Shown here piece by piece: positions 1,645 through 60,145 of a stretch of 60,520 bases of DNA. Source of the stretch: Nanobdellota archaeon (GTDB lineage: Archaea > Nanobdellota > Nanobdellia > Woesearchaeales > UBA583). The stretch covers positions 1 to 60,520 of the forward strand of contig JBMCRE010000005.1 of NCBI GenBank assembly GCA_048625195.1, given 5' to 3'. Under the pieces are notes generated by a model. The model was not told the DNA's origin and made no database searches. It saw only the letters and a list, made by a program, of their open reading frames with translations. Positions within the stretch are counted from its first letter, which is position 1; each line of letters starts with the position of its first letter. Both the position numbers and the translations under genes were made by a program.

Positions 1645-1827
1645 TTAAATATCTTTTGCATTGTCTATAGAAATTTGACTAACATTATTCATAACTTCTG
1701 AATTAGGCAAATAATGATTTAAAAAAAAAAATATCATAAATAATAAAACAATTATTGCTATAATATATGTAATTATTTTTGTTAATGTTAATTCGACACC
1801 TTTTTTATTATTTATAATATAGTTCAT
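1645..1827 (-). CDS. small pilin-like protein with archaeal class III signal peptide
   Basis: Basic N-terminus NNKKG|VELTL followed by a long hydrophobic helix, typical of archaeal prepilins. Confidence 0.6.
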   Translation of the reverse strand: MNYIINNKKGVELTLTKIITYIIAIIVLLFMIFFFLNHYLPNSEVMNNVSQISIDNAKDI

Positions 1828-1830
1828 ATT

Positions 1831-3231
1831 CTAATTGCCAATACTTGTGAGTATATTTTTGAATAAATGAAACGCTAATTGGTCATCATTTTCTACTTGA
1901 TTTATTTTCTTAGAAACGATTTCAATTTTTTTACCATTACATCGAACTTCTGTATTAGCATTTATAGTACTTTGTGGATTATATTTTTTTAGTGTTTTTG
2001 TACATAAATTAGTATTAAAATCACCTCCAAATGCTGATAAATCTATAATATATAATGGTTTTAATTCTTCTTTGTAAGTATCTATTCCAGTTAAGCTTAG
2101 TGATTTGTCATAACCATATAATTGTATAATTTCGTTTGTATTATCTTTAAGGGTTTGTTTTAGTAAAATGACTCTTGATAAATCATCTATTTTGCTTATA
2201 TCAAAAATTGTTGTGATATCTTTATCTAATACCTCATTAGAATTTGTTAAACTATAAAATGCATCATAATTATCGTATTCAAAGAAAAATGTATCTTGAC
2301 TTTTATTTGAATAAAATTCGTATCTGCCTACATTGTAATCAATATCATGATAAACTGTATATACTGAGGCAGAATTTTTTCCACTTCCTGTTTCTCTAAC
2401 ATATTCAAAATCACTAGTACTAGGAAAGCCTGAAGTATTAATCAAAAAATGCATCGTCTCTTCGTGGCTTTTTTTAACATAATTGTGTGTTGCACCACTT
2501 AACGGCCCTCCTCCTTTACCAGAATTTTCTATAGGTATTTTATTATATGGAACATATACAGTAGAAATATATGTATTATGTGTAATATTATGAGAACCTA
2601 CTTGTGAATTAAAATCTAACTGATTTAAAACTGGGCCTATACGTGTTGTGGAATTGAAATAATATTTAGAATCTTCATCTATAAGATTATTTCCAACATC
2701 AAATCCATATAAAATTGTGTTATTCTCTGTAATATTCTTGTTAATAACTGCACATGCCTTGTATGTATTTATTTGATTAATGATGTAGTCATAATTAGTA
2801 TCTTGGTGATTTAAATTACTACCGTCGTTACAATAAATGATTAAATTATGATCTTTCCATGAGGATGGTATCTTGATTCTCTTTAAAATATCTTTTGCAG
2901 TTTTACAATAATATAGTTTAAATGTTTTATTATATAAACTATCACCTGGAGATGCATCATTAATAACTCTAACTTTATATTGTCCTCCAATCATACAAAA
3001 TGGTTCAGATGGATTTTCTCCATCATACTCATTTAAAAGTTTAAATTTATCACCAACACTTGTCTCAGTTTGACTTGAAGTTACTTCACTATTATAATCT
3101 GCTTGAGAATCTTGTACTGATGTTCCAAATGGACTTATAATAGTATGTTCTAATAATCCTCCAATAGAGAGGTTAAAAAGAAATATTATTGATGCTAGTG
3201 TCACTAAAAATGTTAAAAATAATTTTTTCAT
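1831..3231 (-). CDS. secreted/membrane-anchored hypothetical protein (466 aa)
   Basis: N-terminal hydrophobic signal/anchor; Asn/Ser/Thr-rich polar body; 3 nt upstream of the pilin-like gene. Confidence 0.6.
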   Translation of the reverse strand: MKKLFLTFLVTLASIIFLFNLSIGGLLEHTIISPFGTSVQDSQADYNSEVTSSQTETSVGDKFKLLNEYDGENPSEPFCMIGGQYKVRVINDASPGDSLYNKTFKLYYCKTAKDILKRIKIPSSWKDHNLIIYCNDGSNLNHQDTNYDYIINQINTYKACAVINKNITENNTILYGFDVGNNLIDEDSKYYFNSTTRIGPVLNQLDFNSQVGSHNITHNTYISTVYVPYNKIPIENSGKGGGPLSGATHNYVKKSHEETMHFLINTSGFPSTSDFEYVRETGSGKNSASVYTVYHDIDYNVGRYEFYSNKSQDTFFFEYDNYDAFYSLTNSNEVLDKDITTIFDISKIDDLSRVILLKQTLKDNTNEIIQLYGYDKSLSLTGIDTYKEELKPLYIIDLSAFGGDFNTNLCTKTLKKYNPQSTINANTEVRCNGKKIEIVSKKINQVENDDQLAFHLFKNILTSIGN

Positions 3232-3396: not shown

Positions 3397-4509
3397 ATGG
3401 ACACTATTGTATTGCAAAATATTAAACCAGAATATTTTGTAAAAGAATTGAAAATGTTAAAAATAACATCCGAAATGAATTTTTTAGTAACAGATGGGCT
3501 TGCTAAAAATATTAATATCTTAATCTATTACTTAAAAAATCAAAAAGTTAAAAAAATTATTTTCCATAAAGAAAATGAAAACTTAGATGTTTTATGTTAT
3601 AGAGTTTTTTCGATATATCTTGAAAAATGGTACTTAACAATAAGCAAAGATATAGAAATCTTATTTTGTGGCTATTTAGATGAAGATTTACAAATGTTAC
3701 TTAAAAAAAGATTTTACCTTAATTATTGTAGTAATATGAATATAAAACCTAAGTGGCATAAATATGCCCTAAAAAAAGAGATGTCAAAAATAAAGACTAA
3801 TAAACATTTATTAAAGTATGATATTTTTGCAACATTAGTAAAAGAATTTAAAAATTTTCCTTTTTCATTTTTTAATATTCCAAATCAAGAGAACTATGAT
3901 AGATTTGTTTTTTATTTTTATATGTATGATGAAAACCAAAAAAATGAAATAATTAATCTTTTAAATAAATTAAATCTTACAAAATATAAAAAAATTGTTA
4001 GTTTAATAAAAACAAATAAAATAAATGAAGAAGTTTATGGATATGCCTTAGGTTTTGTATATAAAAATAATAAATTAAAAAGATTAACTTTGTATAGTAA
4101 ATTTACTGACAAATATATACTTCAAAATAAACCTTATAACTTCTTATTAGAAAAACACAATTTGAAAATTGATCCTAGTAAAAAATTATTAAGATATTAT
4201 GCATATGATATTTATTTGGAAAATGATATGATAGAGATAAAAGTATACTTTGAGCAATATACTTTTGATATAGAAATCTTAAATAAAACACTTAATACTA
4301 TATTATATAATAAAAGCTGTGTAAGAGTAGAAAAATATAGAAATAATATACAAGTCAATGAAAAATTTGAGTTTGAATTTAATGTGGGATTTAACACTAA
4401 AGAGTTGAAGCATTTAAAAAAATTAGGACTCTATGATGAAAAATATAAAGTTCTTGCAATTTATTTGAAAAAAAATAAAATTGTAGATAAAGTTCTATAT
4501 GAACTTTAA
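3397..4509 (+). CDS. hypothetical protein (370 aa); C-terminal part has beta-hairpin/helix periodicity resembling an ABBA PT-barrel
   Basis: Long ORF with no recognised family motif; the fold suggestion comes from sequence pattern only. Confidence 0.5.
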   Translation: MDTIVLQNIKPEYFVKELKMLKITSEMNFLVTDGLAKNINILIYYLKNQKVKKIIFHKENENLDVLCYRVFSIYLEKWYLTISKDIEILFCGYLDEDLQMLLKKRFYLNYCSNMNIKPKWHKYALKKEMSKIKTNKHLLKYDIFATLVKEFKNFPFSFFNIPNQENYDRFVFYFYMYDENQKNEIINLLNKLNLTKYKKIVSLIKTNKINEEVYGYALGFVYKNNKLKRLTLYSKFTDKYILQNKPYNFLLEKHNLKIDPSKKLLRYYAYDIYLENDMIEIKVYFEQYTFDIEILNKTLNTILYNKSCVRVEKYRNNIQVNEKFEFEFNVGFNTKELKHLKKLGLYDEKYKVLAIYLKKNKIVDKVLYEL

Positions 4510-4940
4510 TTTTCTTTTTCTTTTAATTCTCTAAGTACTGCCTCTGGTACAACATAGTCTTGGTCTTTCAAATCAATACCTGAACCTCCTCCTCCGTTTC
4601 CAGTAACAGAATTACCACTACCATCTGTATGATTATAATGATTAGCATGCCATGTTTCAATTGATTTACTTTCTACTTTATGAGTAATATTATCTGTTGG
4701 ATTTGTTCCTGCATGAATTCCAGTTCCACCATGAAGAGGGGCATTTACATCATTTTGATGATTAGTATGATTGCCATGGCCTTTTGCATTTGCATCTTGA
4801 GTGTTAGCTAATGCACTAATAGCTAAAAATGATGCTGTAATTGCAATTTTTGTAGCAGCTTTGTCCATAACTTTTGCATCTTCTTCTAAAATAAAAGATT
4901 TTAAATTTTTTTTAGGCTTTGGAAGATTATCTTTTAACAT
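4506..4940 (-). CDS. His-Xaa-Asn repeat protein, putative RiPP precursor (His-Xaa-Ser repeat HxsA-like)
   Basis: Basic leader, hydrophobic segment ending ANA, then HGN-HTN-HQN and HAN-HYN-HTD triplets and a Gly-rich tail. Confidence 0.65.
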   Translation of the reverse strand: MLKDNLPKPKKNLKSFILEEDAKVMDKAATKIAITASFLAISALANTQDANAKGHGNHTNHQNDVNAPLHGGTGIHAGTNPTDNITHKVESKSIETWHANHYNHTDGSGNSVTGNGGGGSGIDLKDQDYVVPEAVLRELKEKEN

Positions 4941-59896: not shown

Positions 59897-60145
59897 TTAT
59901 TTGTAAATATTTTTTCTATGTCCTATTTCAACAACAATAATTAAAAGTTTACCAGATTTAATATCAAGAATTATTCGATAATTTCCAACTCGTAATCTAA
60001 AATATGGAGAAGAAACTAATTTTTTAATATAAGAATGTGGTCTAATTCTACATCTTTCTAATGTAGAAATAATTCTTTTAGAATCTTGTTCACTAAGTTT
60101 CTTTAAGAATTTCTTAGATTCGGCTGTAAAAAGAAGATCAAACAT
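59897..60145 (-). CDS. relE: RelE/ParE family toxin
   Basis: FRLRVGNYRII, VEIGHRKNIY. Confidence 0.9.
   Translation of the reverse strand: MFDLLFTAESKKFLKKLSEQDSKRIISTLERCRIRPHSYIKKLVSSPYFRLRVGNYRIILDIKSGKLLIIVVEIGHRKNIYK

Follow-up and report, generated by a model that had tools for sequence, protein, structure and literature searches.

An orphan archaeal protein with a predicted prenyltransferase-barrel fold, encoded beside an HxsA-like His-rich peptide gene

What is the protein encoded tail-to-tail with a gene for a His-rich peptide near the start of contig JBMCRE010000005.1 of a Nanobdellota archaeon (Woesearchaeales, UBA583; assembly GCA_048625195.1), and does it act on that peptide? 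We analyzed positions 1 to 60,520 of the forward strand of this contig, and refer to this whole stretch of 60,520 nucleotides as the window. An earlier note, made from the letters alone, had proposed that the open reading frame (ORF) at 3397-4509 encodes a peptide-tailoring enzyme with a barrel of the alpha-beta-beta-alpha (ABBA) prenyltransferase type, possibly a His prenyltransferase. We call its product P0001, the family to which it belongs fam1, and the neighbouring peptide P0002.

3397..4509, plus strand: fam1 (P0001), an orphan protein of 370 amino acids with a predicted prenyltransferase-barrel (PT-barrel) fold (ORF, AlphaFold2 model, Foldseek)
3397..3861, plus strand: predicted N-terminal alpha/beta domain of P0001, residues 1-155 (AlphaFold2 secondary structure)
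3868..4500, plus strand: predicted compact PT-barrel of P0001, residues 158-368, ~215 residues (AlphaFold2 model, invariant columns, strand parity)
4506..4940, minus strand: P0002, an HxsA-like His-rich precursor or effector of 144 amino acids (alignment of homologues, weak HxsA3 match, context of the orthologue in genome G017)

Its conservation marks ORF 3397-4509 as a genuine gene. Among 1.84 billion cluster representatives, an exhaustive HMMER search recovered 29 relatives of P0001, 23 of them at E <= 1e-10, and the fam1 alignment (A1) holds 22 sequences with 22-51% identity to P0001. Word-indexed homologue searches returned 2-3 relatives only; AT-rich low-complexity words swamp the index. 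A six-frame search located fam1 in 10 of the 20 same-genus genomes, which are 0.5-1.8 Mb in size; no copy turned up in 41 genomes from the order's other families. The genome of the window (G000, 87% complete) encodes the archaeal proteins PolD DP2 and AMP phosphorylase. P0001 has neither a signal peptide nor a membrane segment, and it matched nothing in Pfam, NCBIfam or the PDB sequences at permissive thresholds.

AlphaFold2 supplied with the 22 aligned sequences gave a model with a mean predicted local distance difference test score (pLDDT) of 95.1 and a predicted template modelling score of 0.90; the five models ranged from 93.9 to 95.1 in pLDDT. The single-sequence model was unusable (pLDDT 46), with the hairpins already visible in its secondary structure. 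In the alignment-based model, ten strands form five hairpins (residues 158-175, 213-236, 264-289, 307-327 and 352-368), and one or two helices after each hairpin complete the alpha-beta-beta-alpha order. The N-terminal domain alternates short strands (26-30, 53-57 and 87-91) with helices, and further helices follow up to residue 153; it showed no detectable similarity by hhalign to HxsC or to the N-terminal domain of fam2, a second barrel family described below. P0001 is best explained as a cytoplasmic two-domain protein, with an N-terminal alpha/beta domain followed by a C-terminal PT-barrel.

When this model was searched with Foldseek against 350,542 PDB chains, 47 matches had E <= 1e-3, and the best 50 were exclusively ABBA/PT-barrel prenyltransferases, with probability 1.00. 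AmbP1 gave the best E-value (2.1e-7), and AmbP3 and FamD1 were also among the best matches. The peptide prenyltransferases KgpF, DciF, LimF and PagF were retrieved with template modelling scores (TM-scores), normalized to the target, of 0.52, 0.50, 0.49 and 0.46, respectively. Other matches were EpzP, NphB/Orf2 and DMATS-type CymD, TleC, MpnD and AtaPT. The ABBA/PT-barrel resemblance suspected in the earlier note is borne out by these matches, with LimF, PagF and KgpF among them, and the five aromatic-rich hairpin-like segments that it had picked by eye are the five hairpins of the model. It had placed the barrel in the C-terminal ~230 residues; the barrel does lie there, with an extent of ~215 residues, and the N-terminal domain had gone undescribed. 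The PT-barrel has been found exclusively in prenyltransferases, and is regarded as confined to the secondary-metabolite prenyltransferases of bacteria and fungi (Bonitz et al., PMC3227686). Judging from the model, P0001 very probably has a PT-barrel.

Conservation within the family follows the predicted strands. The 13 invariant columns of A1 are F90, R169, R229, Y233, D271, K282, Y284, F290, K323, E325, F326, F332 and Y368. By strand parity, one face of the strands carries R169/V171/Y173/Y175, R229/T231/Y233, D271/Y273, E280/K282/Y284, K323/E325, Y356 and Y368. The other face is hydrophobic throughout (F170/F172/F174, L230/L232, I281/V283, F324/F326 and L353/I355/L357), as would be expected for packing on the outer helices of the model. 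In ABBA prenyltransferases, the lumen is polar and basic, rich in Tyr and with a few acidic side chains, and it holds the diphosphate and shields the carbocation. The Arg/Lys/Tyr/Asp/Glu pattern on a single face of P0001 would suit such a diphosphate-binding lumen, for which it is a candidate. For comparison, an NphB query sequence 100% identical to 1zb6_A seeded a 26-member Orf2-family profile, whose invariants are K119-x-Y121, N173-x-Y175, R228 and K284 (native numbering; entry numbering is +2); the strand motifs of fam1 are K282-x-Y284, R169, R229 and K323.

The second line of evidence is the company that the gene keeps. An HxsA-like gene immediately adjoins fam1 in 13 of the 13 loci whose surroundings could be read, in all 10 genomes with fam1 and on the metagenome contigs L001, L002 and L019. 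The two genes are tail-to-tail in 12 loci, with several overlapping stops, and head-to-head in one (G011). The most divergent member, on L019 (24% identity), still adjoins an HxsA-like gene. In the window, the TAA stop of fam1 (4507-4509, plus strand) overlaps the stop of the convergent 144-amino acid ORF (4506-4508, minus strand), just as the earlier note had it, and the linkage of homologues to His-repeat peptides that it had offered as a check is present in all 13 loci. Its interpretation holds for the fold and the linkage; the wider HXS radical-SAM context and the paralogous barrel had escaped it.

HXS is an antiphage defence system that was characterized in 2026 in Pseudomonadota (Li et al., Nat Commun 2026, PMC13128918). 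Its four genes have a fixed arrangement (HxsD-HxsB-HxsC-HxsA), with 99.7% of cases in Pseudomonadota. HxsB, HxsC and HxsD mature HxsA in the cytoplasm, by N-terminal processing and a change of +8 Da on an SHRSS motif, and HxsA is exported and then blocks phage DNA entry (PMC13128918). We counted co-occurrence with this system in 13 genomes of the genus (G000-G012). HxsA-like and HxsB genes occur together in 11 of them; 10 of these 11 carry fam1 or fam2, and neither of the two genomes without Hxs genes does. A functional tie of P0001 to the HxsA-like peptide, and to an HXS-type system of archaea, is highly likely.

The surroundings of the pair fall into two cassette types. The first runs from a TPR-rhomboid protease through a Cys-rich secreted protein, in some cases fam2, then fam1 and the convergent HxsA-like gene to TIM, and is found in G006, G007, G010, G016, G018 and L019. 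The second, found in the window, L001 and G013, has a small membrane protein, a ~470-residue protein of the P0003 family divergent from fam1, and the convergent HxsA-like gene. A cluster of components of the radical-SAM system is found in G017, in the order HxsC-like radical SAM, the orthologue of P0002, fam2, HxsD and HxsB (HxsC4, E 9e-31; HxsD, TIGR03976, 59.8 bits against a cut-off of 50; HxsB, TIGR03978, 324 bits). The compact HxsD-HxsB-HxsC-HxsA operon was not found in G000, where the components lie on three contigs.

53578..55044 of the window, minus strand: HxsB-type radical SAM/SPASM maturase (TIGR03978, 357.9 bits)
16493-17404 of contig C6 of G000: HxsC-like enzyme (HxsC4, 125.5 bits against a cut-off of 500; HxsC, 107 bits against a cut-off of 268)

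TIGR03978 is the best family for the window HxsB by >200 bits, and the score is 12 bits under the curated equivalog cut-off of 370. This gene is 49 kb from the fam1/HxsA pair and has no HxsD beside it; in relatives, the two form a divergent pair. In G000, a genome that is 87% complete, the search found no HxsD; it is present in nine of the 12 other genus genomes, in three of them over the cut-off. PADLOC gave no defence-family match for the barrel proteins or the peptide, and placed the radical-SAM enzymes in generic viperin models only. Adjoining the window HxsB is a 202-amino acid ORF (55209-55817, minus strand) with no family match.

The peptide itself has a distinctive architecture. In an alignment of P0002 and its homologues (A2), an invariant N-terminal motif, LPKxKKSLKxFILEEDAKVxDK (position 7 is also written x), accompanies a hydrophobic segment that ends in (D)ANA, an H-x-N-H-x-N-H run (HGNHTNHQN in P0002) and a motif H-x-N-H-(Y/F/H)-N (HANHYN in P0002), which is likewise invariant and lies close to the C-terminus of the conserved core. 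The invariant histidines of P0002 are H58, H98 and H101, and they are the only invariant candidates for an aromatic acceptor in its core; relatives have Phe or His in place of Tyr102. P0002 matched the HxsA3 model (NF038309) at 15.5 bits (E 0.011; cut-off 65), and its repeats are HxN, not HxS; a more distant relative matched HxsA3 at 2e-6.

A Cys is found at the C-terminal end of several HxsA-like proteins (...GGGNC, ...SGNC, ...GGGCI or ...YGCW); their genes are at 1022-1489 of locus L009, 1040-1489 of L010, 4411-4860 of L017, 8005-8382 of L019 and 1047-1496 of L008. P0002 has no Cys. It has a tail of Gly and Ser together with an acidic helix, (E)AVLRELKEKEN, kept in L001, L002 and G013. In G009 (L015, contig C149), tandem HxsA-like genes (2-514 and 570-1043) are followed by a P0003-like gene. 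In G001 and G002, which are without fam1, the HxsA-like gene adjoins a polytopic membrane protein of 480-498 amino acids with an apolipoprotein N-acyltransferase (Lnt)/CN-hydrolase domain (1969-3465 of L011 in G001; 1989-3431 of L012 in G002), which hints at another route of peptide lipidation there.

The barrel is not limited to fam1. Among the neighbouring genes in related genomes we found fam2, a family of 390-455 residues whose C-terminal part aligns with the barrel of P0001 (hhalign probability 95.3%, E 2.2e-8, 18% identity). It keeps the barrel residues (D/E)RFV, IRKTLY, G(I/F)D, K(V/I)Y, K, (K)RxD and YY. Its N-terminal motif, CxxCx5CxG...Y..FG.EEF, matches the C-terminus of HxsC-like radical-SAM proteins (hhalign E 3e-5). 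The fam2 genes concerned are as follows.

L011, 604-1962
L016, 1816-3075
L008, 2597-3823
L020, 4267-5631

By these alignments fam2 looks like an HxsC-derived Cys-rich module fused to a PT-barrel. The CxxC part has been lost from the copy in G017, and fam2, HxsD and HxsB are contiguous in G012. The TPR-rhomboid protease (366 amino acids), the Cys-rich secreted protein (165) and fam2 (454) lie together on contig 4 of G000 (L020, 4267-7231; contig coordinates of the fam2 cassette, G000:C4:50335-51582). This trio precedes fam1 in G006, G016, G018, G007 and L019, and is apart from the fam1/HxsA pair in G000. The rhomboid protease could remove the N-terminal membrane segment of the HxsA-like peptide.

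What, then, might P0001 do? We take the fold, the conservation pattern, the gene adjacency and the co-occurrence with HxsA and HxsB as support for a putative peptide prenyltransferase that acts on the HxsA-like precursor, perhaps on His, a plausible function that we propose tentatively as the likeliest of those considered. P0001 would then be a dedicated accessory of an archaeal, genus-restricted variant of the HXS radical-SAM system, with the product of the adjacent gene as its substrate. The barrel lumen would bind the diphosphate of an allylic prenyl donor through the invariant R169, R229, K282 and K323; Tyr 173, 233, 284, 356 and 368 would form a shield, and D271, E280 and E325 could serve in metal binding or as a base. 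The prenyl group would be passed to a residue of the His-rich core, where H58, H98 and H101 would be the obvious aromatic acceptors. Transfer would be cytoplasmic and would precede both the export of the peptide and the loss of its N-terminal segment. In this scheme the ligand, the acceptor, the chemistry and the timing are all inferred. Prenylation of His has a precedent: LimF is cited in a passage of PMC13290415 as C-geranylating His (Zhang et al. 2022).

A donor for such a reaction could come from a polyprenyl synthase, of which G000 has one (G000:C9:5587-6372). The enzyme is present in five of the 13 genus genomes, and all five carry a barrel protein. As an association with the barrel (5/10 versus 0/3 genomes) this is too weak to count, with a one-sided Fisher p estimated at ~0.2. 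In G000, G006, G010 and G011 the polyprenyl synthase has no other obvious consumer, a UbiA-type enzyme being present in G012 alone of the five, which mildly favours a prenyltransferase.

Several results weigh against prenyl transfer. P0001 matched no prenyltransferase model of Pfam or NCBIfam at E <= 1, and the 22 family members matched none of the Pfam prenyltransferase models at E <= 0.1; P0001 falls outside PF11468 (PTase_Orf2), PF11991 (Trp_DMAT) and the NCBIfam LynF/TruF/PatF families. In the PDB sequences, P0001 (phmmer) had no match and the family profile (hmmsearch) had chance matches only. Aligned by hhalign with the 26-sequence NphB/Orf2-family profile, A1 reached a probability of 0.8% (E 0.07), and with NphB alone the comparison was negative. 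The sole local alignment paired R229 with R228 of NphB; it was non-significant and we did not count it. The Foldseek TM-scores are modest (0.31-0.52, with root-mean-square deviations of 6-12 Å), in part because the barrel has ~215 residues here and ~290 in known enzymes, so that the match holds at the level of the fold only. The equivalence of the Arg/Lys/Tyr cluster to a diphosphate site is likewise proposed from the residue pattern.

The supply of a donor is a further difficulty. HMG-CoA reductase was found in none of 21 genomes from the genus and the wider order, control archaea being positive, and UbiA-family enzymes are missing from 12 of the 13 genus genomes (G012 is the exception). On this gene content, organisms of the genus neither produce isoprenoid precursors nor build ether lipids of their own. 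Without HMG-CoA reductase and UbiA, a prenyl donor must come from scavenged precursors, and this need weakens the case for a prenyltransferase. The polyprenyl synthase is itself missing from five of the 10 barrel-bearing genomes, including G008 and G001, which are 94-95% complete. Finally, the bacterial HXS system works without a barrel protein (PMC13128918).

One alternative, possible though on balance doubtful, is that the PT-barrel is a non-catalytic scaffold that binds the HxsA-like precursor through its basic lumen or its N-terminal domain. Such a protein would be a chaperone or substrate-presenting partner for HxsB or HxsC, or for export, as HxsD is with HxsC, and its target could be, for example, the invariant acidic leader motif FILEEDAKVxDK. 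The charges agree with this, as the peptide leader is invariant and acidic and the conserved residues of the barrel are mostly basic. In E. coli, HxsC-HxsD is the substrate-engaging core (PMC13128918), and the HxsC-like Cys motif of fam2, together with its adjacency to HxsD, suggests docking of a protein or peptide. A scaffold would also sit well with a genus that lacks the mevalonate pathway, and with G000, where HxsD went undetected while the fam1/HxsA pair is intact; a missing HxsD is, however, weak evidence in a genome that is only 87% complete. Against a scaffold, no non-enzymatic PT-barrel is known (PMC3227686), and the 13 invariant residues, with K-x-Y, R-x-x-x-Y and K-x-E kept across fam1 and fam2 at ~18% identity, look more like catalytic or ligand-binding positions than like a groove for a peptide.

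Another is that P0001 is a barrel enzyme with a different phosphate or diphosphate substrate, for instance a nucleotide or a peptide intermediate bearing phosphate, and carries out a different tailoring step. We think this quite unlikely. It draws on P0029 (578 amino acids), a metagenome member of the family that carries an APH-type phosphotransferase domain at its N-terminus (PF01636, E 8.7e-8), and on a weakly APH-like gene that adjoins the HxsC-like gene in G001 (L011, 5726-6682); the fusion, however, is a single case and may stem from faulty gene calling on a metagenome contig. The absence of isoprenoid precursor genes from the genus and a divergence too great for any sequence link to prenyl chemistry would both allow for such an enzyme. 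Yet every structurally characterized PT-barrel is a prenyltransferase, and a barrel protein is present in each of the five genus genomes that have a polyprenyl synthase.

That P0001 is a small-molecule aromatic prenyltransferase and its place beside the peptide gene incidental synteny is highly improbable: most ABBA prenyltransferases, including AmbP1, AmbP3 and FamD1, do use small aromatic metabolites, but we reject this explanation because the adjacency survives every rearrangement seen (13/13 loci while the surroundings change, in two cassette types and with the pair relocated in G000), and the phyletic pattern tracks HxsA and HxsB, with no secondary-metabolite genes nearby in these small genomes.

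If P0001 is a peptide prenyltransferase, its closest functional counterparts would be the cyanobactin F-family enzymes, here PagF (5tu6), LimF (7vmw), KgpF (8ye0) and DciF (9lwv). These have the same PT-barrel fold (target-normalized TM-score 0.45-0.52) and, like P0001, are soluble, cytoplasmic and encoded beside a ribosomal peptide gene. They differ in sequence, with 10-14% identity in structural alignment and no similarity at the profile level, and in build, since P0001 has a barrel of ~215 rather than ~290 residues and an extra N-terminal domain of 155 residues. The setting differs as well: the host of P0001 is archaeal, and the peptide beside it resembles a signal peptide at its N-terminus and belongs to an HXS-type radical-SAM system. 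Among the fam1 neighbours of the 13 loci we found no PatA/PatG-type protease and no PatE-like or cyanobactin precursor; the neighbours are a secreted orphan, the HxsA-like gene, the rhomboid protease, the Cys-rich protein, fam2, TIM and radical-SAM genes.

The Orf2/NphB/CloQ/AmbP1/FamD1 enzymes (PF11468) have the best Foldseek E-values and share the alpha-beta-beta-alpha order with P0001. Unlike P0001, the known enzymes of this type have small-molecule acceptors and belong to secondary-metabolite clusters of actinomycetes and cyanobacteria. The lanthipeptide prenyltransferases offer a third comparison. The leader-dependent enzymes among these RiPP prenyltransferases are reported to recognize the precursor in full, leader included (J Am Chem Soc 2025, PMC12715784), and P0001 would need to do the same if modification precedes export; those enzymes act on a different class of precursor.

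The archaeal system resembles bacterial HXS in having a His-rich, HxsA-like protein that is predicted to be exported and to lose its N-terminal segment, HxsB-type and HxsC-like enzymes and, within the genus, HxsD. Bacterial HxsA has HxS repeats and a peptidoglycan-binding domain, whereas the archaeal HxsA-like proteins have HxN repeats. The archaeal variant adds one or two PT-barrel proteins, the TPR-rhomboid protease and the Cys-rich secreted protein, and its genes are scattered in G000.

The fold is known; in the literature searched we found no description of the family, its domain architecture, its archaeal host or its association with a radical-SAM HXS-type system. The strongest form of our proposal would be that a sequence-orphan clade of PT-barrel enzymes, made up of two paralogous families, has gone unrecognized in DPANN-type archaea and lipidates (probably His-prenylates) a His-rich HXS effector before export. 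We hold this to be unlikely as a whole. Were it true, P0001 would be the first ABBA prenyltransferase in Archaea and the first outside secondary metabolism, and the system would be the first to combine radical-SAM chemistry with prenylation in the maturation of an exported, possibly antiviral, protein, with a donor scavenged from the host since the genus lacks the mevalonate pathway.

The predicted fold places the PT-barrel in archaea with genomes of 0.5-1.8 Mb, in a family invisible to sequence searches, and ties a barrel family to a system recognized as antiphage defence only in 2026 and almost only in Pseudomonadota (PMC13128918). A catalytic P0001 would extend peptide or protein prenylation, possibly on His, to Archaea and to an exported effector, and would raise the question of where a symbiont without the mevalonate pathway gets its donor. 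A non-catalytic P0001 would be the first PT-barrel to have been turned into a binding module. In both cases, the locus offers a handful of residues that can be tested and a peptide substrate that is already defined.

Two further genes of the second cassette type lie on the other side of fam1.

1831..3231, minus strand: P0003, a secreted orphan protein of 466 amino acids, divergent from fam1 (synteny)
1645..1827, minus strand: single-pass membrane protein of 60 amino acids, downstream of P0003 (same arrangement in L001)

P0003 matched nothing in Pfam or NCBIfam. Its homologues adjoin fam1 or HxsA-like genes in L001, L004 (G013), L012 (G002) and L015 (G009), and P0003 may be a further component or a target of the system. 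At the far end of the window, an ORF of 82 amino acids (59897-60145, minus strand) has a sequence that looks RelE/ParE-toxin-like (...YRIILDIKSGKLLIIVVEIGHRKNIYK).

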